Origin: Acidimicrobiia bacterium
Lineage (GTDB): Bacteria > Actinomycetota > Acidimicrobiia > Spongiisociales > ZC4RG35
NCBI GenBank assembly: GCA_015488325.1
Contig: WFOA01000010.1
Location: forward strand, 15,945-79,944
Direction: 5' to 3'
DNA: 64,000 nucleotides
Every line of letters begins with the position of its first letter. Position 1 is the first letter of the stretch. Below are positions 10,405-39,557 of this stretch, in pieces. Below the pieces are notes generated by a model, which had not been told where the DNA came from, made no database searches, and saw only the letters and a list, made by a program, of their open reading frames with translations. The translations under genes and the position numbers were made by a program.

Positions 10405-11324
10405 AGCACCCGGTACCGCACCGAACCGACGAGACGTCCCAGGCGCAGCCCCGCCCCTTTGATCCATTCCCGTCGGCGGCGGGAGGAGACGACGAGGGGG
10501 AGACGAGCGACGAGCGACACGTAGGCCCGGAGCGTCGACAGCACCCCCGGATGGGGCATGTACTCGGCGCCGTAGACCCGGCGGGCGAGAGCCTGCTCGA
10601 CGCCCCACCGTACCCGTTGCCGCCACAGGGACCAGGCGTCGTCCCGGATCCGGTACCAGATCTCGGCGTCGGGGACCGACACGTACGCGAGGCCTCCTCG
10701 CTGCAGCCGCCACGACAGGTCGAGTTCGGAGAGGTGGGACGGATAGTCCTCTCGGAACCCTCCCAGGGCCCTCCACAGGTCGGCCCGCATGGCGAAGTTG
10801 GCGCTGGAGGCGTGGGATGCGGCCGCGGGCGACCGTCCCCAGGGCTGTGTGTCACGGTCGGGATGGTCGGAGGGATGCATGGGACCCGCGCCCGCAGGCG
10901 CCGACGCCAGGGCCTCGACGAACGCAGAGATCCACCTGGTCGACACCCGGTCGTCGGCGTCGCAGAAACAGAGGATGTCTGCGTCGGTGGACTTGGCGCC
11001 GATGTTGCGGGCAGCCGGGGATCCGACCGGTTCGGGAACGGAGATCACCTGGAGGGCGGGGAGGCGCTCTCGGAAGCCCTCGGCGACGGCGCGGGTACCG
11101 TCGGTCGACCCGTCGTCGACCACCACCACCTCCCAGGGACCTTCGTAGTCTTGGGCTTCGAGGGCTTCGAGCTGCTCGGCGAGATGACGGGCCGCGTTCC
11201 GGGCCGGGATCACGACGGCGACCCTCGGGTTGGGACCCGGCGGGCGGCTCACCTCCGAGAGATCCGGCACATCCCAGGGGGCGAGGTCGTCGAGGCCCAT
11301 ACGGTGAGGATACCGAGGGTCCAT
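10395..11324 (-). CDS. Glycosyltransferase family 2 (paralog of 12876..13739)
   Basis: PRVAVVIPARNAARHLAEQLEALEAQ ... VVVVDDGSTDGT ... CDADD motifs. ATG at 11324 has GGGGA 5 nt upstream; an alternative ATG lies at 11300. The C-terminus RYRVLYL matches the paralog's RYRVLVL. Confidence 0.8.
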   Translation of the reverse strand: MDPRYPHRMGLDDLAPWDVPDLSEVSRPPGPNPRVAVVIPARNAARHLAEQLEALEAQDYEGPWEVVVVDDGSTDGTRAVAEGFRERLPALQVISVPEPVGSPAARNIGAKSTDADILCFCDADDRVSTRWISAFVEALASAPAGAGPMHPSDHPDRDTQPWGRSPAAASHASSANFAMRADLWRALGGFREDYPSHLSELDLSWRLQRGGLAYVSVPDAEIWYRIRDDAWSLWRQRVRWGVEQALARRVYGAEYMPHPGVLSTLRAYVSLVARLPLVVSSRRRREWIKGAGLRLGRLVGSVRYRVLYL

Positions 11325-29794: not shown

Positions 29795-31554
29795 ACCAGC
29801 ACCTCCGAGGTCTCGCCGCGGTGGACTTCGATCGTCCCCACCGGTTCGAACCCCATCTTCCGGTAGGCGGCGATCGCCGCCGAGTTGTCGGCGCCCACGA
29901 CCACCTTCACCTTCCCCACGCGGCTCATCGCGGTGAGGAGCTCCCGTCCCAGAACGGTGCCGATCCCTCGACCGCGCCGATCCGCCACCACCGCCATCGA
30001 CACCAGTTCGGCGTCGACGCCGACGTCGCCGCCTTCGTAACGGAAGGTCTCCCAGGCCCGCCGCAGCATCGTCGGGCGCAGCAACCGAGGTGCGGCCGCC
30101 ACGACCGCCCGGATCCCGAAGCGACGGACGAAGGAACGGTAGAAGGCGCCGATGTCGGCGACGCCGGCGACGAACCCGACCGGCCCGCACTCGTCCTCGG
30201 CGACGAGCACGACGGCGTCTTCGTGTTCCACGAGCGCACGGTAGAGGAGTGTCATGAACCGGCGTCCCAGACGGGGCAGGAAACCGGTGGAGATCGCTTG
30301 CGCGTGCAGGACGGCCAGGAAACGGGTGTCCCCTTCGTCGGCCCGCCGGACCCGGACCTCGCCGGAAGGTCCGTCGCCGAGGGCGGCCGCCAGCCGGTCC
30401 AGGCCTTTGGTGAGGGCGAGCTCCCGATAGGTGGAGAGGACGATCTCGACGACCCTGTCCTCGTCGAAGAGCCGTCTGGCCCGTTCGCGCCCGGCCCGGC
30501 CCATCCGAGAGGCCAGCTCCGGGTCGTCCCCGATGGTCCGGATCGCCCGGGCCAGGGACCGGGCGTCGGAGACGGGGACGAGGAGGCCGTTCTCGCCGTC
30601 GGCGACGACCTCCCGGCATCCCCGGATGTCGGTGGCGACGATGGGCAGGCCCATGGCGGCAGCCTCCATCGCCGCCCGGGGGAAGCCTTCACGGTGCGAC
30701 GGGAGCACGAACACGTCCATCGTCGGGTAGAGGGCATCGACGTCGGTGCGCATCCCCAGGAACCGGACGCCGTTCGCCTTCGCCCGTTCGATCATCGCGT
30801 CGCCGAGGTCGTCCGCCTTTTCGGGGTCCCGGGGCCCGATGCAGACCACCACGTACCGGTCGTCGAGGAGTCGGGCGGCCTCGAAGAGCTCCGGGTAGCC
30901 CTTCTCCGCCACCATCCGCCCCACCATGCCCACCACCACCGCGTCCGACGGGATGCCGAGCTCGGCACGCATCCGATCCCGATGGGACCGGTCGTACCGG
31001 GCGGGATCGAACCGGGCGAGGTCGACACCGTTGCCGAGATGCCGTGTCCGAGCCCGGGGTGCGAGACGCAGCCTGTGGGCCAGTTCGAGATCCTCCGCGC
31101 TCTGATAGAGCTCGGCGTCGGAGAACCGGGAGGCGACGAACTCCAGGGCGTAGACGACCAGGCGTTTCAGCGGTGGATCGTCGGGGGCCGCGTAGAAGCC
31201 GTGCACCGTGTTGACGACGACGGGCACGCCGGCCACACGGCCGAGGATCCGACCGTAGACGCCGGGTTTGGGGTTGTGGGTGTGCAGCACGTCCGGTCGG
31301 AGCCGCCTCAGCACCCTCCAGAGCTGGGCGGCTGCCCGCAGGTCGGCGCCGAGGCTCATCCCACGTGTCGACGCCGACAGTGCCACATGTTCGATGCCTG
31401 CCGCCTCCAGCTCGGCCACCCAGGGGCCGGGAGAGGAGATCCCCACCGACCGGATGTCCCTCTGGAGGGGTGCGAGGAGCTGGGGGAACACCAGGTAGCG
31501 GAGGGACAGGTCCACCGTCGTCAGGTGGGCGATCACCGGGCGCCGATCAGCCAT
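29782..31554 (-). CDS. Bifunctional glycosyltransferase family 4 / GNAT acetyltransferase fusion
   Basis: N-terminal about 380 aa GT4 (EGFPRAAMEAAAMGLPIVATDIRGCREVV). C-terminal about 200 aa GNAT-like (FLAVLHAQAIS ... GRGIGTVLGRELLTAMSRVGKVKVVVGADNSAAIAAYRKMGF). Confidence 0.8.
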   Translation of the reverse strand: MADRRPVIAHLTTVDLSLRYLVFPQLLAPLQRDIRSVGISSPGPWVAELEAAGIEHVALSASTRGMSLGADLRAAAQLWRVLRRLRPDVLHTHNPKPGVYGRILGRVAGVPVVVNTVHGFYAAPDDPPLKRLVVYALEFVASRFSDAELYQSAEDLELAHRLRLAPRARTRHLGNGVDLARFDPARYDRSHRDRMRAELGIPSDAVVVGMVGRMVAEKGYPELFEAARLLDDRYVVVCIGPRDPEKADDLGDAMIERAKANGVRFLGMRTDVDALYPTMDVFVLPSHREGFPRAAMEAAAMGLPIVATDIRGCREVVADGENGLLVPVSDARSLARAIRTIGDDPELASRMGRAGRERARRLFDEDRVVEIVLSTYRELALTKGLDRLAAALGDGPSGEVRVRRADEGDTRFLAVLHAQAISTGFLPRLGRRFMTLLYRALVEHEDAVVLVAEDECGPVGFVAGVADIGAFYRSFVRRFGIRAVVAAAPRLLRPTMLRRAWETFRYEGGDVGVDAELVSMAVVADRRGRGIGTVLGRELLTAMSRVGKVKVVVGADNSAAIAAYRKMGFEPVGTIEVHRGETSEVLVWSA

Positions 31555-33658
31555 CGATCGTGCTCCTCAGGACCTGCTCGTACCGGTCGATGCTCGCACC
31601 CATCGTGTACCTGCGGGCCAGCTCCCGGGCGGCGGCACCCATCCGGCGGCGACGCTCGGGATCCGCGGCGAGGTTCTTCAGGGCGGCGGCGGCACCTTCG
31701 ACGTCCCCGGGCCGGACCAGGATCCCCGTCGTACCGTCGGTCACCACTTCGGGGGTGCCTCCCACCCGGGTCGCCACCACCGGACGTCCCGCCGCCGCGG
31801 CCTCCAGCACGACGCCGGGGAGCCCTTCGGTGCGGGAGGTGGACAACAGCACGTCCGCCCATCCGAACAGCTCTTCCATCTCCGCCGCCGAACCGAGGAC
31901 CTCGATCCGGGGACCCGCCGCCGCCTCGACTTCGGTGCGCAACGGGCCGTCACCGGCGATCTTCGCCCACACGTCGGCGTCGGCCGCGGCGAGGTTGATC
32001 GCCTGCACCGCCGTCAGCGGGTCCTTCTCCGTGGACAGGGCGCCGGCCACCAGCACCCGCAGCTCGGGGTGCGGGAGGGGCGGGTCCAGCTCGAACCAGT
32101 GGTCGGGCACGCCGGTGGGCGCGACCGTGACCCGGTCGGGGGCCACACCCATCGAGTCGATGAGCTGGCTGCGGGTGGCCTCCGACACGGCGGTGATCCG
32201 GTCGCAACGTCCGAGGAGGTACCGCTGGATCCGAGCGTGCCACGGGCCCCGCACCCAGTACCGGGGTTCACCGATCGACGAGTAGACGACGCGGGGACGC
32301 CCGGGCATGAACCTGGTGGCGGCGACGACGGTCCGCAGGGTGGCTCCTCCGTTGGCCAGGACGACGTCGGGCCGGCGCCGCCGGAGGAGCCTGCGCAACA
32401 GCCGTGGCAGCGCCACGTCGGAGACGTCGGCTCCCCCGACGGCGTCGTCCACCTGGACCCGGGGGTCGGATCCGCCGGCTCTGAGGGCCACCAGGCTCGC
32501 CTTCCATCCCCGTGCCCGCAGGCCCTCGACGAGACGTTCACCGAACACTTCGGCGCCGCGTCGCCGATCGGAGCTGACCAGCACCATCACCGACCCGAAC
32601 CGGTCCCCCTTCGAGGCGACGACCCGCCGACGCCAGCGCGGGTAGGCGCGGGGGGCCCGCAGCGCCAGCACCGCCCGGTCGAGCCGTCGGTCGGCGTGGA
32701 GGGTGACCGCCAGGTTGAGGAGATGGGGCCTCTTCCCGTCGAACCGCACCAGGTCGGTGCGGGGGAGCAACTCCCGGGCGACCCGGAGGGGGAGACCGCC
32801 GGTGGAGGTCTCCGCCAACACCTCCCCGGGTACGGCGGCTCCCAGGGCGGAGGCGACGCTCCAGGCCAGATGCCCGAACCCGGCCAGGCCGTGGTCGTGG
32901 GCGAAGCGGACCGCCGTCTCCCAGTCGAGGCCGTGCCGGGCGACTTCGACGAGGTCACGGAACAGCACCAGCCGGAACCGATGATCCAAGAGGGCGTGGG
33001 TACACAGGAACGCCGCCACGACCTCGTCGGGCAGCAGCCACCCGAGGTGGGTCTGGTCCGGCTCGGGGGGACGTGCCCGCTCCCACGCCTGCTCGGTCGC
33101 TCCGGCGGCGCGGCCGCGGAGTTGACGGTACGAGAAGAGGTCCCAGTGCAGGTCGACGTTGAAGACCACCCCGGAGGGGTCGCGGAACGGGATGTCCCGT
33201 TTGTCGGCTCTCGGTCGCTTCGGTGGAATCCCCAGACATTCGGGGTCGGAGGCGACGATCTCAAGGGTGCGACCGAGTTCGGCGGACGGGACGACCAGAT
33301 CGAGGTCGGTGAAGATCCGCTGGCCCGGGGTCGGGTAGAGCCGGTCCGCCAGCGCGGGCCCCTTCACCACCGCCGCTCGGATGCCGGCGGCGGCGAGGCG
33401 TTCCATGAGGCGACGGAGGCTGCGGCGCATCACGATGCCCAGGGCGACCGCCCGGGTCTGCACGGTGGACAGCTCGTGGCGATCGACGACGTCGCCGGGG
33501 GTGAGCAGGCCGACCAGACCGTGGCTACAGGCGAGTTCGAAGACGGCGCCGTCGACCGACCCGGCCGGGCGTTCCCATCCTGCCGCCACCGCCGCCAGCA
33601 CCCGTTCGGCGGGATCGGCCGCGAACAGCCATCCTTCGTTCGGTTCGGTGCCCCTCAC
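31547..33658 (-). CDS. Fusion protein: N-terminal uncharacterised nucleotidyltransferase-like domain (NTP_transf_5-like) + C-terminal glycosyltransferase family 4
   Basis: N-terminal region with FTDLDLVVP-type motif. C-terminal GT4 motif EGLPGVVLEAAAAGRPVVATRVGGTPEVVTDGTTG. First gene of a 3-gene minus-strand operon; stops overlap downstream starts. Confidence 0.75.
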   Translation of the reverse strand: MRGTEPNEGWLFAADPAERVLAAVAAGWERPAGSVDGAVFELACSHGLVGLLTPGDVVDRHELSTVQTRAVALGIVMRRSLRRLMERLAAAGIRAAVVKGPALADRLYPTPGQRIFTDLDLVVPSAELGRTLEIVASDPECLGIPPKRPRADKRDIPFRDPSGVVFNVDLHWDLFSYRQLRGRAAGATEQAWERARPPEPDQTHLGWLLPDEVVAAFLCTHALLDHRFRLVLFRDLVEVARHGLDWETAVRFAHDHGLAGFGHLAWSVASALGAAVPGEVLAETSTGGLPLRVARELLPRTDLVRFDGKRPHLLNLAVTLHADRRLDRAVLALRAPRAYPRWRRRVVASKGDRFGSVMVLVSSDRRRGAEVFGERLVEGLRARGWKASLVALRAGGSDPRVQVDDAVGGADVSDVALPRLLRRLLRRRRPDVVLANGGATLRTVVAATRFMPGRPRVVYSSIGEPRYWVRGPWHARIQRYLLGRCDRITAVSEATRSQLIDSMGVAPDRVTVAPTGVPDHWFELDPPLPHPELRVLVAGALSTEKDPLTAVQAINLAAADADVWAKIAGDGPLRTEVEAAAGPRIEVLGSAAEMEELFGWADVLLSTSRTEGLPGVVLEAAAAGRPVVATRVGGTPEVVTDGTTGILVRPGDVEGAAAALKNLAADPERRRRMGAAARELARRYTMGASIDRYEQVLRSTIDG

Positions 33659-33812
33659 CCCGGCCTTCCCTCGTCTCGATGCCTGCCGGGGCGAACGATG
33701 GCGTCACCCGCCCCGGTGCCTCCTTAGAGTACCGGCGGGCAGCCGGCCCGAAAGGGGGTACCGGGCGGCCGCCGCCCAGACGACCAGCGGACGACCAGGA
33801 GGATCCCAGCCC

Positions 33813-34409
33813 GTGACGACCCTCACCGCCGCCGACGGGACGGTGTTGGAGGCCCGATGGGACGGCCCCGCAGACGCCGGGATGGCGGTTGTGTTCTGCC
33901 ATCCCCATCCCGGTTACGGGGGGACCATGACCGCCCCCCTCATGAACGGTGTCACCGACGGGCTCACGGCGAGGGGTTTCGCCGTCCTCCGCTTCAACTT
34001 CCGTGGTGTCGGCGAGTCGGGCGGGCACCACGACGACGGCGAAGGAGAGGTCGCCGACGTCGCCGCGGCGGTCGCCGCCGCCGAGGCCCGCCACCCCCGG
34101 GTCTCGGTGTGCGGCTGGTCCTTCGGGGCGGCGATGGCCCTGGGTTGGATGGCCCGGTCCCGACGGGCTCTCCCCTTCGTCGGGATCGCCCCGCCCCCTC
34201 AGCTCTGCCCTCCGCCCGACGAGGTACCGCCCGGTCCGAAGCTCATCGTCGTCGGCGACCGTGAACAGGTGATCGACCTCGACGCCCTCCGCGCCTACGC
34301 CGCCGCCATCGGGGCGACGGTCGAGACGCTCGTCGGCTCGGACCATTTCTTCGTGTTCCGCCACACCCAGGTGGCGGAGATGGTGGCCGGTTTCCTCAGC
34401 GCGGAGTGA
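33813..34409 (+). CDS. Alpha/beta hydrolase (COG2945-like)
   Basis: GTG start with AGGAGG 10 nt upstream. HPHPGYGG motif and nucleophile elbow GWSFG. The track's long N-terminal extension is Arg/Ser-rich junk. Confidence 0.7.
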   Translation: MTTLTAADGTVLEARWDGPADAGMAVVFCHPHPGYGGTMTAPLMNGVTDGLTARGFAVLRFNFRGVGESGGHHDDGEGEVADVAAAVAAAEARHPRVSVCGWSFGAAMALGWMARSRRALPFVGIAPPPQLCPPPDEVPPGPKLIVVGDREQVIDLDALRAYAAAIGATVETLVGSDHFFVFRHTQVAEMVAGFLSAE

Positions 34410-34599
34410 ATCCGCGGTTTCGAGCCTCGGCGAGCTCGTCCGGTCCGAAGGACGCCAACAGGTTCCGCCCGAGCAGGTCGTCGGCTTCCACCCTGGCCTC
34501 GAGCAGCTCGTACTGTCGGGGATCGTCGGTGTCATAGACCACCATGTCGTCGCGGGTTCCCACGTAGCGGTGGTGCTCGAACCTCCGCAGCCGGGGCAT
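34396..34599 (-). CDS. Small hypothetical protein (67 aa)
   Basis: MPRLRRFEHHRYVGTRDDMVVYDTDDPRQYELLEARVEADDLLGRNLLASFGPDELAEARNRGFTPR. Its ATG overlaps the zinc-ribbon stop codon (GTGATG). The rest of the long ORF in this frame is Arg-rich junk. Weak support. Confidence 0.35.
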   Translation of the reverse strand: MPRLRRFEHHRYVGTRDDMVVYDTDDPRQYELLEARVEADDLLGRNLLASFGPDELAEARNRGFTPR

Positions 34600-34901
34600 C
34601 ACTCCTCCCCTCCCCGACCGGTCGGCACCTCGGCTCCGCAGTTCGGGCAGGTGGCGACGGCGATGTCGCCGACGATGAAACGGAACTCGCATTCGGGACA
34701 CTGCACCCGGGGCGATGGCGGTTCGGGCCGCGGAGGAGGCGGAGGCGACGTGTATCCCGGGGGTGCCCCGGCCGCCTGGCCCGGTCCGGGCCGAGCTCCG
34801 GCGGCCCTCACCGCGTTCACCGACCCGCAGGCCGGACAGGAGAACTTCCCGGGACCGGGCACCTCGAACTGCGTGTGGCATGCTCCGCACCGTACGATCA
34901 T
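34599..34901 (-). CDS. Double zinc-ribbon protein
   Basis: Two CxxC...CxxC pairs (CGACHTQF...CPACG and CPECEF...CPNCG) separated by a Pro-rich linker. Confidence 0.6.
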   Translation of the reverse strand: MIVRCGACHTQFEVPGPGKFSCPACGSVNAVRAAGARPGPGQAAGAPPGYTSPPPPPRPEPPSPRVQCPECEFRFIVGDIAVATCPNCGAEVPTGRGGEE

Positions 34902-35338
34902 CCTTCACCTCCCACCGGCTCGCCGACCGCCCCGATCGCCGCCAGATACTCGGCCTCCAGGGCCAGCACGGCGACGACGTCGTCCCGAGGGTAGGAGACG
35001 CCGTGACGGAGGGCGATCTGGTCCATGATGTACTCGACGGCCGCCGGGGCGCCGCCGGCCGTGACCTCCACCGGGGTGCGTCGACGCCTCTGGGCGAGCC
35101 CCTGGAGGTAGTAGACCTCCCATTCGATGATCCGGCGGATGTCGGAACGTCTGAGACGTGCCGCCAGCTCGGAGTCGAGCCGCTCGTGGATGAAGGCGAC
35201 GGCGTCTTCCACGACGTACACGGGTTCGATCGGACCCGAACTGCGACGTTTGGCCTCCTGGTAGACGAGGGCGGCGACGATGAAGAAGAAGATCGCCGCC
35301 AACAGACCGGCGAGGGCGACGGTGGTGACCCCGGACAT
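34898..35338 (-). CDS. Hypothetical membrane-anchored protein (single N-terminal TM)
   Basis: MSGVTTVALAGLLAAIFFFIVAALVYQEAKRR, then a soluble domain of about 110 aa. Its stop overlaps the start of the zinc-ribbon gene (ATGA). Confidence 0.55.
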   Translation of the reverse strand: MSGVTTVALAGLLAAIFFFIVAALVYQEAKRRSSGPIEPVYVVEDAVAFIHERLDSELAARLRRSDIRRIIEWEVYYLQGLAQRRRRTPVEVTAGGAPAAVEYIMDQIALRHGVSYPRDDVVAVLALEAEYLAAIGAVGEPVGGEG

Positions 35339-35370
35339 GGTCTGAACTGTAGATGTCTTCCGGCCGGATC

Positions 35371-36480
35371 TCAGAGCCCGATCCGGTCGGCCAGGAGCCG
35401 CCGATGGTGGGCGGGGTCCCCGAACATGAGCTGGGTGCTCTTGGCCCGGCGAAAGTACAGGTGGGCGTCGTGTTCCCAGGTGAAGCCGATGCCGCCGTGG
35501 ACCTGGATGTTCTCACCGGCGCAGAACAGGGCCGCTTCGGAACAGTACGACTTGGCGAGGGGGGCGAGCTCGTCGAGTTCGTCGTCGCCTGCCGCCAGGG
35601 CGACGGCGGCCGCGGAGGCGGCGGCGCGGGCCGACTCGGCCTGGACCAGCATGTCGGCGCAGGTGTGCTTCACCGCCTGGAAGGACCCGATCGGCCGCCC
35701 GAACTGGTGTCGTTCTTTGGCGTAGGACACCGCCATGTCGAGGCAGCGTTCGGCGAGGCCGACCTGTTCGGCGGCGAGGGCCACCGACCCGACCTTCACC
35801 GCCCGTTCCAACAGGTCCTCACCGGCCGCCGGGAGCCGGGCGTCGTCGGGGACCTCCACCCCGTCGAAGCGGACATCGGCGAGGGCCCGGGTGAGGTCGA
35901 GGGCGTCGAGACGGCGGCGTTCGGCCGCCGCAGCCGGGACGACGAACCACGAGACCCCGTCGCCGGTCCGGGCCGCCACCAGGTAGTCGTCCGCCACGTG
36001 CCCGTGGGCGACGTAGCGCTTCGTCCCGGTGATGACCCATCCGTCGTCGGCGGCGACGGCTTCGGTGGCGACACCTGCGGGTTCCCACTCCCCCGTCGTC
36101 TCGGTGACGGCGGGAACGACGATCCGTGTCCCGTCGGCGATGCCGGGGAGCAGGGATTCCTTGTGGGCGTCGGAACCGCCGGTGAGCAGAAGGTCGGCGG
36201 CGAGTACCGCCGAGAACAGGTAGGGGGTCGGGTCGAGGGCACGACCCATCTCTTCGATCAGCACCGCCGCTTCGAGGTGTCCGAACCCCGCCCCTCCGTA
36301 CTCCTCGGGGATCAGCATCGCCTGCCATCCCATGGCAGCCATCTCGTCCCAGTGGGCGCGGTCGAACCCTTCGGGGAGGTCGATGACCCGCCGCAGCTCC
36401 GCGGAGGGGAGGCGTTCGGAGAACCAGCGCCGGGCGACGCGCGCCAGTTCCTGTTGTTCCTCGCCGAAGGCGACTCCCAT
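35371..36480 (-). CDS. Acyl-CoA dehydrogenase
   Basis: Real start MGVAFGEEQQELARVARRWF (ATG at 36480, GGAAGGAG upstream). ACAD C-terminal motifs QVHGGIGFTWE. Confidence 0.85.
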   Translation of the reverse strand: MGVAFGEEQQELARVARRWFSERLPSAELRRVIDLPEGFDRAHWDEMAAMGWQAMLIPEEYGGAGFGHLEAAVLIEEMGRALDPTPYLFSAVLAADLLLTGGSDAHKESLLPGIADGTRIVVPAVTETTGEWEPAGVATEAVAADDGWVITGTKRYVAHGHVADDYLVAARTGDGVSWFVVPAAAAERRRLDALDLTRALADVRFDGVEVPDDARLPAAGEDLLERAVKVGSVALAAEQVGLAERCLDMAVSYAKERHQFGRPIGSFQAVKHTCADMLVQAESARAAASAAAVALAAGDDELDELAPLAKSYCSEAALFCAGENIQVHGGIGFTWEHDAHLYFRRAKSTQLMFGDPAHHRRLLADRIGL

Positions 36481-36530
36481 GTCGGCTCCTTCCCCGGGGC
36501 CAGCACAGGTTAGCGGTCGTTCACCGCCCT

Positions 36531-38321
36531 TCAGAACGCCTCGACGGCCAGCTCCATGATCCGTCCGTCCTCGGATTCGGCTGCACGCCGGCGGGCGGCG
36601 ACCTGGGGTGCCACCGACCGCACGAAGAACCGGGCCGACTCCACCTTGCCGGCGTAGAAGGGGTCGTCGGCGACCTTGGGGGCGGCGACTTCGGCGTGGC
36701 GCAGGAGCAGCCACGCCACCACGACCTCGGCGAGGCTGAACAGAAGCGGAGTCGCGTGGAGGCCCGTCAGGTAGATCTCGGCCGGTTCGGTCTGGGATGC
36801 GACGAGGTGGCCGACCATCGCGCCCACATGGGCCTGGGCGTCGTCGAGCATCCGCCCCAACAGCTCCCGCTCGGCCGACACCGGGTCGTCGGCGCCTCCG
36901 GCCTTGACGAACTCGGCGATCTCGGCGGCGAGGGCGGCCACGGCCTGGCCCTGATCCCGTGCGATCTTGCGGAAGAACAGGTCGAGACCCTGGATGCCGG
37001 TCGTGCCTTCGTAGATGCTGTCGATCTTCGCGTCCCGGATGTACTGTTCCAGCGGGTAGTCCTTCAGGTATCCGGAACCTCCGAGGGTCTGAAGGGACAG
37101 GGAGAGCAGCTCGTACCCCTTCTCCGACGAGTACCCCTTGACCAGGGGCAGCAGCAGATCGTTGCGCCGCCGCCAGGTGTCGTCGTCGGGATGGAGGTGG
37201 ACCTGATCCTGCACCCAGGCCGTGTAGGCGACGAGGGCGCGCAGCCCTTCGGCCCAGGCCTTTTGGATCATCAGCATCCGCCGGACGTCGGGGTGGGCGA
37301 TGATCGGGACCCGCGGGGACGTCTTGTCGGCGGCCCTGGTGAGATCCGGACCTTGGATCCGCTCCTTGGCGTATTCGAGGGCGTTGAGGTAGCCGGTCGA
37401 CAGGGTCGCCATCGACTTGGCGCCGATCATCATCCGGGCGTGCTCGATGACCCGGAACATCTGGCGGATCCCGTCGTGAACACCCCCGACGAGGTATCCG
37501 ACTGCGGGACGGTCCATCCCGAGGGTCAGCTCGCAGGTCGCCGACCCGTTGATGCCCATCTTCTTCTCCAGGTTGGTGGCGACGATCCCGTTGCGTTCGC
37601 CGAGGGTTCCGTCGGGGTTCACCAGGAACTTGGGGACGATGAACAGGGAGAGCCCCTTCGTTCCGGGTCTCGCACCTTCGGGTCGGGCGAGGACCAGGTG
37701 GATGATGTTCTCGGCGCCGTCGTGTTCGCCTCCGGTGATGAACCGCTTCACCCCTTCGAGGTGGTACACGTCGCCGTCGACGTGGGTCGCCTTGGTCGTT
37801 CCGGCGCCGACGTCGGAGCCGGCGTCGGGTTCGGTGAGGACCATCGTCGCGGCCCAGCCCCGCTCGACCATCGTCCGGGCGAGGTCACGCTGGGCCGGCG
37901 TGCCCTCCTCCCACAGCACCCGGGCGAACAGTGGACCCGACGCGTAGAAGGTGATGGCCGGGTTCGCTCCGAGCAGGAACTCCTGGGTCGCCCAGAAGAT
38001 GGTGGGGGGCACCACCATGCCGCCGAGCTCTTCGGGGATCCCGAGCCGGTCCCAACCGGTTTCCCGCAGCAGCGCCAGGGCTCCCTTCACCTCGTCGGGG
38101 AGGTGGATCTCGCCGTCGGTCAGCTCGAGGGGGGTACGGTCGGCGAGGGCGAACGACCGGGCCCATTCCTCGCGGGCGAAACGTTCGACCTCCCGGAGGA
38201 TGTCGCGGGCCGTGTCGAGGTCGAGGTCGGAGAACGCGTCGAGGTGCTCTTGGATGCCCAGCACCTCGAACAGGTTGAATTCCAGGTCCCGCAGGTTCGA
38301 CCGGTAGTGGGTCATGGCCAT
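36531..38321 (-). CDS. Large acyl-CoA dehydrogenase (FadE-like, about 600 aa)
   Basis: MAMTHYRSNLRDLEFNLFEVLG N-terminus and ACAD middle/C-terminal domains (YEGTTGIQGLDLFFRKI). Confidence 0.85.
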   Translation of the reverse strand: MAMTHYRSNLRDLEFNLFEVLGIQEHLDAFSDLDLDTARDILREVERFAREEWARSFALADRTPLELTDGEIHLPDEVKGALALLRETGWDRLGIPEELGGMVVPPTIFWATQEFLLGANPAITFYASGPLFARVLWEEGTPAQRDLARTMVERGWAATMVLTEPDAGSDVGAGTTKATHVDGDVYHLEGVKRFITGGEHDGAENIIHLVLARPEGARPGTKGLSLFIVPKFLVNPDGTLGERNGIVATNLEKKMGINGSATCELTLGMDRPAVGYLVGGVHDGIRQMFRVIEHARMMIGAKSMATLSTGYLNALEYAKERIQGPDLTRAADKTSPRVPIIAHPDVRRMLMIQKAWAEGLRALVAYTAWVQDQVHLHPDDDTWRRRNDLLLPLVKGYSSEKGYELLSLSLQTLGGSGYLKDYPLEQYIRDAKIDSIYEGTTGIQGLDLFFRKIARDQGQAVAALAAEIAEFVKAGGADDPVSAERELLGRMLDDAQAHVGAMVGHLVASQTEPAEIYLTGLHATPLLFSLAEVVVAWLLLRHAEVAAPKVADDPFYAGKVESARFFVRSVAPQVAARRRAAESEDGRIMELAVEAF

Positions 38322-38349
38322 CCCTTCTCTTTTCAGCACCCAGTCTAAT

Positions 38350-38365
38350 TTGAGTAATAGCTCAA
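38350..38365. promoter_or_regulatory. Candidate TetR operator: inverted repeat TTGAG-taatag-CTCAA in an AT-rich fadE/tetR divergent intergenic region
   Basis: Perfect 5-bp arms with a 6-bp spacer inside the only AT-rich stretch (38341..38380) of this intergenic region. Confidence 0.45.
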
Positions 38366-38403
38366 GAACATTCGACCTCCGGGAACCTGGTACGGTCGCC
38401 ACC

Positions 38404-38949
38404 ATGAGGAACCGCGCCGGTATCGAGACCCGGGAGCGAATCCTGGAAGCGACCCGCACGCTCCTCTCCGAGCGAGGTCTGGAGGGCACCACCGTCAAGG
38501 CGATCTGCGAGGTCGCCGGGATCCTGGCCGGGAGCTTCTACAACCTGTTCGACTCGAAGGAGCAGGTGGTGCTGTCCGTCGTCGCCGAGGCGATCGCGGC
38601 CGTCGACCCCGACGGCCCGGGCCCCGAGAGCGTGGCCGAACTCGTCGAGGCGTACGTCCGGTTCGTCACCGAGGAACAGACCCTGGCGAGGGTGTACCTG
38701 GCCGTGGCGGTGAGCAAAGGCCTCCAAGACCCCGAGATGGCCCGACGGGTGCTCCGACACCACGAGCAGCGGGTCGAACGGTTCCGACGTGCCCTGGCCG
38801 CCGAAGGACTCGGCGAACCGGAGGCCTCCCTGCGGGCGGAGGCCGTCGCCGCCACGTTGGAGGGGTATGCCCTCCATGCCCTGTTGGACCCCGGCTTCGA
38901 TCTGGCCGCCCACGCCCTCAGGTTGGTGAACGAGACGGTGGGAGCATGA
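38404..38949 (+). CDS. TetR-family transcriptional regulator
   Basis: HTH RERILEATRTLLSERGLEGTTVKAICEVAGILAGSFYNLFDSKEQ. Divergent from the fadE-like gene. Confidence 0.8.
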   Translation: MRNRAGIETRERILEATRTLLSERGLEGTTVKAICEVAGILAGSFYNLFDSKEQVVLSVVAEAIAAVDPDGPGPESVAELVEAYVRFVTEEQTLARVYLAVAVSKGLQDPEMARRVLRHHEQRVERFRRALAAEGLGEPEASLRAEAVAATLEGYALHALLDPGFDLAAHALRLVNETVGA

Positions 38950-39557
38950 AGGTGGAGACGCTGCGGGACGACGACACCCTCGTCGTTCGACGGGTACCGT
39001 CGATCGGCCCCTTCGACAACAACGCCTACGTCGTCGGTACCCCCGGCGGGGCAGCAGCGGTGATCGACGCCGCTGCCGAACCGGAGCTGATCATCGAGGC
39101 CTGCGCCGGCCTGACACCGCAGATGATCGTCACCACCCACGGCCACCTCGACCACATCGGCGCCCTCGACGCCGTCCAAGAGGCCTTCGACATCCCGTTC
39201 CTCCTCCACCCGGCCGACACCGAGATCGCCCAACGCTCCCCCGACGCCCCCCTCGGCGACGGCCAGGAGATCGTCCTCGGCGACGTCGCCCTCCACGTCG
39301 TCCACACCCCGGGACACACCCCGGGTTCGGTCTGCTTCGTCGTCGAGCCCTTCCTGTTCTCCGGCGACACCCTCTTCCCGGGCGGTCCCGGCGCGACCCG
39401 GTGGGAGTACTCGAGCTTCGGCCAGATCATGGATTCGCTGGAACGGCGTCTGTTCACCCTCCCCGATCCCACCTTGGTCTACCCGGGCCACGGCGATCCG
39501 ACGACCATCGGCGCCGAACGTCCCCATCTGGACGAGTGGCGGGCGCGAGGTTGGTGA
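38946..39557 (+). CDS. MBL-fold metallo-hydrolase (glyoxalase II-like)
   Basis: HxHxDH motif TTHGHLDHIGAL; 203 aa; ATGA overlap with the tetR stop. Confidence 0.85.
   Translation: MKVETLRDDDTLVVRRVPSIGPFDNNAYVVGTPGGAAAVIDAAAEPELIIEACAGLTPQMIVTTHGHLDHIGALDAVQEAFDIPFLLHPADTEIAQRSPDAPLGDGQEIVLGDVALHVVHTPGHTPGSVCFVVEPFLFSGDTLFPGGPGATRWEYSSFGQIMDSLERRLFTLPDPTLVYPGHGDPTTIGAERPHLDEWRARGW

Follow-up and report, generated by a model that had tools for sequence, protein, structure and literature searches.

A conserved, translationally coupled gene trio of Acidimicrobiia encoding a predicted membrane-anchored protein, a tandem zinc ribbon protein and a 67-residue protein

The window, a 64 000 nt stretch of DNA from an Acidimicrobiia bacterium, contains three small open reading frames on the minus strand, here designated A, B and C. 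ORF A (34898-35338, minus strand) encodes 146 amino acids and, from the frame itself, its homologues and an AF2 model, is predicted to be a bitopic membrane protein of an undescribed family. ORF B (34599-34901, minus strand) encodes 100 amino acids, in which Pfam and NCBIfam matches and the conserved Cys identify two MJ0042-type Cys4 zinc ribbons separated by a variable Pro-rich linker. ORF C (34396-34599, minus strand) encodes 67 amino acids, with a compact beta-beta-alpha-beta-alpha arrangement according to AF2 and its homologues. A 369 amino acid acyl-CoA dehydrogenase (ACAD; 35371..36480, minus strand) ends 32 nt upstream of A and is preceded by a second ACAD of 594 amino acids carrying an Acyl-CoA_dh_C domain (36531..38315, minus strand); both were assigned from their Pfam domains. 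On the other side a COG2945-like alpha/beta serine hydrolase with a GWSFG motif (33813..34409, plus strand) is convergent with C and overlaps its 3' end by 14 nt. The sequence-only reading had placed three minus-strand frames with overlapping stop and start codons between an alpha/beta hydrolase and an acyl-CoA dehydrogenase, and had described a transmembrane protein, a double zinc ribbon and a 67 amino acid protein; the coordinates, the overlaps, this anatomy and the flanking genes were all confirmed.

Chance open frames of such length are common at 70% GC, therefore the evidence that A, B and C are genes is comparative; the ORF list of the same region contains many spurious frames as long as these three. 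GC3 was 0.85, 0.78 and 0.84 for A, B and C respectively. Differences from a locus that is 85-90% identical (L007) were counted at codon positions 1/2/3 and amounted to 16/14/49 in A, 11/11/40 in B and 5/7/30 in C. Substitutions falling mainly at codon position 3 indicate that A, B and C are genuine genes, and all three are under purifying selection. Each of them also has homologues numbering in the hundreds. The predicted proteins are acidic to neutral, with pI values of 5.2, 6.6 and 5.3 respectively.

The stop codon of A and the start codon of B overlap in an ATGA (34898..34901, minus strand; A TGA 34900-34898, B ATG 34901-34899), while the B TGA (34601-34599) shares one base with the C ATG (34599-34597) in a TGATG (34597..34601, minus strand). 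A Shine-Dalgarno sequence for B (34902..34913, minus strand; GGGAGG at 34913-34908, 6 nt spacer) lies inside the codons for the C-terminal GGEG tail of A, and a GGAGG (34608-34604, minus strand) stands ahead of the TGATG overlap before the start of C. The 4 nt (-4) A/B overlap was kept in 65 of 76 related loci and a B/C overlap, of -4 or -1, in 51 of 68. A Shine-Dalgarno-like core was present 5' of B in all 76 loci and 5' of C in 54/68, and was absent from A in 70/78. A GGEE-type tail was limited to A proteins from genomes that contain B. The proposal that these uncharacterised small genes form one translationally coupled operon was upheld by the conserved overlaps and gene order. However, the unit is probably larger than the three genes originally proposed. 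In 73 of 80 loci A is preceded by an ACAD gene of the same orientation; ≤96 nt separate the two genes in 69 of these 73, and the ACAD gene runs into the start of A in seven; in most relatives the gene directly upstream of A is the long form (594 amino acid type). The 369 amino acid ACAD of the window, for which the best NCBIfam matches (PimD-small and IpdE2) were sub-threshold, is probably the first part of a transcript shared with the trio. No Rfam family and no tRNA was found when the entire window was scanned. Consensus scans of 33300-39500, which are ill-suited to high-GC actinobacteria, gave no promoter-like sites and terminator matches at chance level only.

Conservation was assessed over a sample of 80 species-level Acidimicrobiia genomes. 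A check of this kind had been suggested by the sequence-only reading and came out in its favour: a tblastn match to B directly followed A in 80/80 loci, and C followed B in about 67/80. One subclade (L008, L009, L011, L012, L038, L050 and L062) carries A-B with no C within 6 kb, and both zinc ribbons of B are kept in C-containing and C-less clades alike. Two further loci, L037 and L058, have no ACAD upstream, and C is located 2.2 kb off behind a methylmalonyl-CoA mutase gene. Distant Acidimicrobiales retain divergent A and C without B, and identity of A in the deeply divergent loci falls to about 25-35%. Every carrier in the sample is a member of the class Acidimicrobiia. A, B and C are real genes, and their coupling and neighbourhood are conserved; A, C and the hydrolase gene look like the ancestral set, to which one large clade added B in the position between A and C. 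By these comparisons the trio comprises undescribed families restricted to the class. The earlier statement that none of the proteins could be assigned to a known family stood for A and C and fell for B, which matches the MJ0042-type zinc ribbon at the domain level.

Residues 7-25 of A (35264..35320, minus strand) form the predicted transmembrane anchor, VALAGLLAAIFFFIVAALV, which is followed by QEAKRR. The mean Kyte-Doolittle value over these 19 residues is 2.93, against 1.81 for the next best window elsewhere in the protein, and this stretch remains hydrophobic in every homologue. On the positive-inside rule A is predicted to adopt an N-out, C-in topology, with a very short external N-terminus, the transmembrane helix and a cytoplasmic helical domain of ∼110 amino acids. 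The AF2 model (mean pLDDT 81.7) has helices at residues 3-33, 43-53, 56-61, 64-81, 98-112 and 118-134. A motif of invariant or nearly invariant columns, EWEVYYLQGLAQ..R..PVE.(V/T)AGG, occupies residues 72-96 (35051..35125, minus strand), and its second half corresponds to a low-confidence loop with a pLDDT of ∼60 (residues 81-100). This motif was found in every B-containing genome, and the A-like proteins encoded at Acidimicrobiales loci without B do not have it; it is a candidate docking site for B.

Relatives of A were found in 243 species-level genomes, and the 233 homologues assembled were without any Pfam domain. The best Pfam match of A itself had an E value of 0.62 and NCBIfam gave none; when 88 members were scanned singly, only scattered transmembrane-type matches and no family were recovered. 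An A profile gave no matches at E≤10 against PDB sequences. A contains no Cys, and no conserved Cys/His or cofactor motif was seen. A search of the PADLOC-DB models for anti-phage defence and toxin-antitoxin components with A, B, C and the hydrolase produced a single, transmembrane-driven match, of A to a membrane CARF model (E 0.014).

B contains the pattern CxxC-13-CxxC twice, with Cys at positions 5/8/22/25 and 68/71/85/88, and all eight Cys are invariant among 28 homologues. The first ribbon (CGAC...CPAC, residues 5-25) maps to 34827..34889 and the second (CPEC...CPNC, residues 68-88) to 34638..34700; between them the linker (residues 33-64, 34710..34805; all minus strand) varies in length and sequence, and Pro accounts for 19 of the 100 residues of the protein. 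Ribbon 1 scored above both curated cut-offs, with 32.9 bits for Pfam Zn_ribbon_4 (cut-off 30.3) and 27.4 bits for TIGR02098 (cut-off 20.9), and both ribbons have the conserved CxxC knuckles with a short beta-hairpin between them that characterize the MJ0042-type domain (PF13717 Zn_ribbon_4, PF13719 Zn_ribbon_5, TIGR02098). At the domain level B is, by these profile matches, a tandem MJ0042-type zinc ribbon, but it differs from that group in being a free-standing ribbon tandem on a Pro-rich tether, tightly coupled to a membrane-anchored partner. The MJ0042-type family has no defined function, and membership is therefore uninformative on the role of B. A literature search on Acidimicrobiia zinc ribbons and on MJ0042 gave nothing relevant; an off-topic match concerned N-terminal zinc ribbons of heliorhodopsins in archaea.

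B also passed the Pfam cut-off for the HypA/HybF nickel metallochaperone (PF01155; 30.2 versus 28.9 bits) by virtue of its CxxC...CxxC ribbon. However, the match covers only profile positions 70-98 of 112, which represent the zinc ribbon insert, and B is without the Ni-binding N-terminal domain. HypA identity was rejected on this lack of a full-length match and on the scores with the NCBIfam equivalogs (18.7 versus 112 and 15.5 versus 88.1). The FmdB-family zinc ribbon (TIGR02605) was likewise rejected, at 19.3 bits against a cut-off of 31.3.

C had been described as acidic, which is correct if mild (pI 5.25, 14 D+E versus 11 K+R). The AF2 model is confident (mean pLDDT 93.6), 158 homologues were collected, and only 184 cluster representatives were found at E≤1e-3 among 1.84 billion proteins; by these searches C is an undescribed, class-restricted family. 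Pfam and NCBIfam scans of the window protein, 101 family members and 88 distant relatives yielded only sub-threshold matches to GYD and Ada_Zn_binding, and a C profile gave three chance-level matches against PDB sequences, in which Ada was not listed. The GYD domain (PF08734) was matched weakly by 32 of the 101 members (best E 5.8e-4) and not by the C of the window, and the structure searches offered no match in its support. One C-like cluster, P0467, has a hydrophobic C-terminal tail of its own.

The resemblance of C to the N-terminal domain of Ada (PF02805; PDB 1eyf and 1u8b) took several forms. Ada was one of only two PDB matches of C in Foldseek (TM 0.48), among structural matches that were all weak and generic, and the order of secondary structure is shared in the aligned region. 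The end of C, F.PD.LAEARNRG(F/Y)(R/T)P, is similar to ASEALAAGFRP of Ada, and in some Acidimicrobiales relatives a CxxC comes next, just as in Ada; these relatives score below threshold on PF02805 (best E 0.0047), and only a few distant relatives keep the terminal CxxC. PF02805 was matched by 3/88 distant relatives, at best with 17.3 bits against a cut-off of 23, and not by the C of the window; hhalign of the C profile with E. coli N-Ada returned a probability of 1%. The C of the window has no Cys and hence neither a zinc site nor a methyl-acceptor Cys, and it is acidic, whereas the Ada N-terminal domain is a basic DNA binder. Membership of the Ada domain was rejected, as the Cys4 site (CxxxC...CxxC) is missing and all scores fall below significance. 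At best C may be a degenerate descendant of the Ada N-terminal fold, not a member.

The hydrolase of the window matched PDB entry 3trd with an E value of 2.5e-24 and also 2i3d and 2fuk (range to 4e-18), and so falls in the COG2945-type group with a GxSxG nucleophile motif (GWSFG); it differs from the subjects above in being a neighbour gene outside the trio. We know of no COG2945-type hydrolase described with A- or C-like partners. The gene had been treated as a mere flank, a view that the comparative data do not sustain, as its association with C is conserved throughout the class. It was convergent and adjacent in 45 of the 80 main-clade loci, and in all five Acidimicrobiales contexts (L087, L090, L092, L094 and L096) it lies on the same strand directly 3' of the C-like gene, with gaps of -4 to 80 nt; in L096 the two genes overlap by 4 nt. 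An N-terminal signature is common to the window and L087 hydrolases. ACAD is still adjacent after rearrangement in L090 and L092, the two Acidimicrobiales loci of the five in which it is within reach. A collinear block of ACAD, A-B-C, hydrolase, Lpd, E2 and LipB-LipA occurs in many genomes. The Lpd-E2-LipB/LipA block follows the trio in most relatives but is missing from the window and from Acidimicrobiales loci with A and C, so that its adjacency looks like inherited gene order, and a functional link to it was rejected.

From these data we infer complex formation, a membrane topology and a physiological role for the trio. The reading that we favour, with a probability of roughly 0.3, is that A, B and C may form a stoichiometric complex which is tethered to the membrane on its cytoplasmic side and serves the acyl-processing enzymes encoded next to the trio. 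The three proteins would be co-translated as the subunits of an Acidimicrobiia-specific module. Their genes would be expressed from the distal end of an ACAD operon, and the overlapping stop and start codons, together with the internal Shine-Dalgarno sequences, would yield each protein in near-equimolar amounts. A would be anchored by its N-terminal helix with its ∼110 amino acid helical domain towards the cytoplasm. Soluble B, with two Cys4 ribbons on a flexible Pro-rich tether, would most likely be a protein-protein bridge docking on the invariant motif at residues 72-96 of A, and the compact acidic alpha/beta protein C would join the A-B complex. The whole might then be a membrane-tethered adaptor or regulator, holding or controlling the COG2945-type serine hydrolase and one or more ACADs at the inner face. 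The confinement of the invariant loop motif of A to genomes that contain B was counted in favour of such an adaptor, as was the hydrophobic tail of P0467, which would put C in a membrane context. The role in acyl processing is proposed with low confidence, from the conserved neighbourhood alone. Several observations count against the adaptor: the neighbourhood comes from a single class, within which descent by itself can keep genes together as if they were functionally coupled; in the clade of the window the hydrolase and the trio are encoded on opposite strands; ACAD is within reach in just two of five Acidimicrobiales loci; there is a C-less subclade, and L037 and L058 are exceptions; and the Shine-Dalgarno-like core of A is commonly missing (70/78 loci). 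A more elaborate version, in which the adaptor recruits or gates the COG2945-type hydrolase and ACADs, C descends from a methyl-phosphotriester domain of Ada without its zinc and now serves as a protein subunit, and B is a later-acquired zinc ribbon bridge, is rather doubtful.

With a similar probability, the trio may instead be a self-contained housekeeping or envelope-associated complex, such as a structural or assembly factor tethered to the membrane, next to which the neighbours are simply inherited gene order. The confinement of all sampled carriers to one class agrees with this, as do the long collinear ACAD-to-LipA block, which implies strong synteny by descent, and the lack of an upstream ACAD in L037, L058 and three of the five Acidimicrobiales loci. 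However, the adjacency of C and the hydrolase outlasts a strand inversion and deep divergence while that of Lpd-E2-LipBA does not, and the 4 nt overlap of C-like and hydrolase genes in L096 and the ACAD/A overlap in seven loci are also at odds with neighbours that are merely inherited.

The sequence-only reading had pointed to anti-sigma and other regulatory systems, while noting that no sigma factor was adjacent. The latter point was borne out, since no gene within ±10 kb carries a Sigma70 domain, and none was found among the conserved neighbours. Regulation of this type, in which B and/or C would be retained at the membrane by A and set free by a signal to act on transcription, is unlikely. 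Zinc ribbons commonly bind nucleic acids, three weak indications link C with the domain at the N-terminus of Ada, which binds DNA, and ZAS anti-sigma factors with their ECF sigma partners likewise combine a small membrane protein with a Cys-rich zinc-binding element. In the trio, however, the zinc sites and the transmembrane helix are on separate proteins. A has virtually no extracytoplasmic part with which to sense, and its helix is N-terminal, the opposite of anti-sigma factors; the proteins are acidic to neutral, unusual in DNA binders, and the structural matches are all weak and generic. ZAS membership of A or B was rejected, as neither is a protein with HxxxCxxC and then a transmembrane segment (A has its helix at 7-25 and no Cys, B has no helix) and there is no cognate ECF sigma gene. 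The analyses do not support the anti-sigma analogy.

It is very improbable that B is a two-centre, rubredoxin-like iron protein and the trio a membrane-tethered electron relay reoxidising the upstream ACADs, for which AlkG, the two-domain rubredoxin of alkane hydroxylase systems, provides the analogy. B does have two Cys4 sites with CPxCG-type knuckles and a linker between them, shares an operon with ACADs, may be kept near the membrane by A and gave weak NCBIfam matches to rubredoxin-like models (E 0.12 and 0.99). However, rubredoxins have about 29 residues between knuckles, and the 13 residues of B fit a zinc ribbon (zinc itself being predicted from sequence). The significant matches were Zn_ribbon_4 and MJ0042, with rubredoxin outside the 25 best Pfam families; A and C offer no conserved Cys/His or cofactor motif; B has no counterpart in those Acidimicrobiales lineages in which A, C, the hydrolase and ACAD are retained; and the usual electron acceptor of ACADs is ETF.

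Finally, that the ORFs, B or C above all, are chance frames in GC-rich DNA, as the spurious ORFs nearby, the weak GC3 contrast of B and its omission from public gene calls on six near-identical contigs might suggest, is already refuted by the comparative data, namely conservation at the protein level, positions that never vary (Cys in B, charged residues in C), the codon position 3 bias, the confident fold of C and the calling of B in other records.

Soils, oceans, sponges and wastewater harbour abundant Acidimicrobiia, few of which have been cultured. Established knowledge is not overturned by the trio, the worth of which is as a well-delimited and testable unknown. Present in at least 243 species-level genomes and coupled to ACAD and serine hydrolase genes, the module may mark a lineage-specific membrane organisation of lipid/acyl-CoA metabolism, and the C family may show an Ada-type zinc domain losing its metal site and surviving as a small protein subunit. 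A and C merit family (DUF-level) definitions. Gene callers pass over B on this contig, where it is worth annotating, but call it in other records (P0241).

The three overlapping minus-strand ORFs of the sequence-only reading lay exactly where that reading had placed them: A (34898-35338, minus strand, 146 aa, TM-anchored), B (34599-34901, minus strand, 100 aa, a 300-nt ORF corresponding to 10441-10740 of locus L001) and C (34396-34599, minus strand, 67 aa). The stop of A overlaps the start of B in ATGA, and the stop of B that of C in TGATG; GGGAGG precedes the ATG of B at 6 nt and GGAGG that of C at 4 nt. The locus was identical to contig WFUX01000178.1, from an Acidimicrobiia metagenome-assembled genome (GCA_015484725.1). 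At the G+C content of the window (~70%) long chance open frames are plentiful, and many appeared in the ORF listing of the region, therefore the case for A, B and C as genes is comparative. Each had 158-233 database homologues, GC3 was 0.85, 0.78 and 0.84 respectively, and differences from the related locus L007 (85-90% identical) at codon positions 1/2/3 numbered 16/14/49 in A, 11/11/40 in B and 5/7/30 in C; that the three are chance ORFs is very unlikely. The public annotation of the source contig and of five near-identical contigs calls A and C and leaves B uncalled; a 100-aa protein identical to B (P0241) is recorded from other gene calls.

With each species represented by one genome, scanning yielded relatives of A in 243 genomes, nearly all labelled Acidimicrobiia or evident mis-binned equivalents; 80 loci were retrieved. 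Conservation in related genomes, the check proposed by the earlier reading, was evident: B followed A in 80/80 loci and C directly followed B in about 67. C was displaced 2.2 kb downstream in two loci, was absent within 6 kb in a subclade (L008, L009, L011, L012, L038, L050 and L062), and in four further loci the contig ended before its position. Between B and C, the displaced loci (L037 6620-8953, L058 6281-8875) carried a gene for the large subunit of methylmalonyl-CoA mutase and an ORF of 152 aa without family match, and C started at the stop of this ORF. The 4-nt A/B overlap was present in 65/76 loci and a B/C overlap (4 or 1 nt) in 51/68. The observation of a coupled trio is confirmed and extended. 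B and C formed a single 176-aa ORF in a contig of one long-read MAG (L019 6435-6965) and were separate in another contig from that MAG (L020); either a true fusion or an erroneous frameshift could account for the joined ORF.

An SD-like core was located upstream of B in 76/76 loci, of C in 54/68 and of A in only 8/78. No recognisable Shine-Dalgarno core preceded A in the remaining 70 of 78 related loci or in the window (35339-35370), whereas those of B and C were strong, and the start of A was often GTG; translation of A by re-initiation after the acyl-CoA dehydrogenase (ACAD) gene is a possibility.

A (pI 5.2) has a single strongly hydrophobic segment (residues 7-25) followed by QEAKRR, and by the positive-inside rule its domain would be cytoplasmic, with almost nothing outside. 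In the AF2 model (mean pLDDT 81.7) a long helix at the N-terminus is followed by a domain of five helices. The most conserved element, EWEVYYLQGLAQ..R..PVE.VAGG, has a second half modelled as a low-confidence loop. This invariant loop motif was restricted to B-carrying genomes, and the GGEE-type C-terminal tail, which encodes the SD of B, was found solely in genomes with B. B (pI 6.6) carries a pair of CxxC-13-CxxC ribbons connected by a Pro-rich linker whose length varies; its eight Cys are all invariant. It scored above the curated thresholds of the MJ0042-type models Zn_ribbon_4 (Pfam) and TIGR02098 (NCBIfam); the domain is known, its arrangement in B new. Its HypA match was confined to the ribbon portion of that profile; assignment as HypA, an FmdB-family protein or a canonical rubredoxin was ruled out by the Pfam/NCBIfam scans and Cys spacing. 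A and C each represent a previously undescribed family confined to the class.

The main-clade order was ACAD, A, B, C, a convergent alpha/beta hydrolase, Lpd, an E2 acyltransferase and a LipB-LipA fusion. The ACAD before A is either a 597-aa form with an Acyl-CoA_dh_C domain or a ~370-aa form; both precede A in the window. A same-strand ACAD lay upstream of A in 73/80 loci, with a gap of <=96 nt in 69 of them, and its stop overlapped the start of A in seven loci. The hydrolase belongs to an uncharacterised COG2945-like group (PDB relatives 3trd, 2i3d and 2fuk). The Lpd-E2-LipBA block, which most relatives carry after the trio (compare L044 7772-12336), was absent across the window (1-64000), its place being taken by a glycosyltransferase island whose first gene is a 703-aa NTP_transf_5 and GT4 fusion (31547-33658, minus strand). 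In many Acidimicrobiia LipB (octanoyl/lipoyl transferase) and LipA (radical-SAM lipoyl synthase) occupy one ORF of ~550-600 aa (LplA-B_cat, LIAS_N and Radical_SAM domains) downstream of Lpd and E2, as in L025 (10573-12231) and no fewer than 28 further related loci.

All five longer Acidimicrobiales contexts encoded a divergent A-like protein that retains the TM, both helices (DAV..I...L and DDVR.IL) and YL..IGAVG at the terminus; B was undetectable in any frame of these five. A same-strand alpha/beta hydrolase gene lay directly 3' of the C-like gene in all five (gaps -4 to 80 nt), and the hydrolases of L087, a related locus, and the window share an N-terminal signature. Comparison with the main clade therefore indicates that the A/C/hydrolase association outlasts deep divergence and strand inversion. 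The ACAD association (2/5 contexts) persists less strictly, and the Lpd-E2-LipBA adjacency does not persist. The 300-nt A-like/C-like spacer of one Acidimicrobiales contig (L092 4695-5001) holds an out-of-context RCPLCGS reading, which may be what is left of a B gene since lost.

Subunits produced in fixed proportion are typically marked by conserved stop/start overlaps and SD sequences inside the preceding gene, and because both are conserved here an A-B-C complex is suggested. A would anchor it in the membrane and offer a docking domain on the cytoplasmic side, B would be a flexible zinc-ribbon bridge with two heads, probably docked on the invariant loop of A, and C a small subunit. The conserved neighbourhood tentatively (probability about 0.3) suggests a complex that works at the membrane for the neighbouring acyl-CoA dehydrogenase(s) and serine hydrolase. 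The main rival, equally tentative, gives the complex a housekeeping role unrelated to these enzymes and explains the neighbourhood as gene order passed on by descent. Two other readings are less likely: a redox relay, the 13-residue knuckle spacing of B fitting a zinc ribbon, and the anti-sigma-type regulatory role raised by analogy in the sequence-only reading, against which stand the lack of any sigma factor in the vicinity and an architecture opposite to that of anti-sigma factors. The earlier interpretation is partly supported. There were no defence or toxin-antitoxin matches, and searches over the whole window found no RNA families or tRNA.

C (pI 5.3) was modelled confidently by AF2 (pLDDT 93.6) as beta-beta-alpha-beta-alpha, with R16, D17, D23, R36, D54, E58 and R62 invariant and D25, D26, R60 and N61 nearly so. 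Its profile matched only 184 of 1.84 billion representative proteins, and the sampled distant matches with a named source were labelled Acidimicrobiales. Three independent signals, each insignificant alone, pointed toward the Ada N-terminal metal-binding domain: 1u8b was one of only two Foldseek PDB matches (TM 0.48), three distant relatives gave sub-threshold PF02805 matches, and several relatives terminate in NRGYRPCxxC, matching GFRPCKRC of Ada. Unlike that domain, C in the window has no Cys, and hhalign of the C profile against it (E. coli sequence) gave a probability of 1%. The likeness is a lead to possible ancestry, not family membership. P0467, a metagenomic protein (cluster of 4), joins a C-like domain to a hydrophobic C-terminal tail resembling two TM segments; in that lineage C would be membrane-anchored by itself. 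In two different Acidimicrobiales lineages a convergent HhH-GPD DNA glycosylase gene, not found in the window, lies just beyond the C-like/hydrolase pair (L087 6055-6642, L088, L089 and L090 5036-5620), a curious adjacency beside the faint Ada-like features of C.
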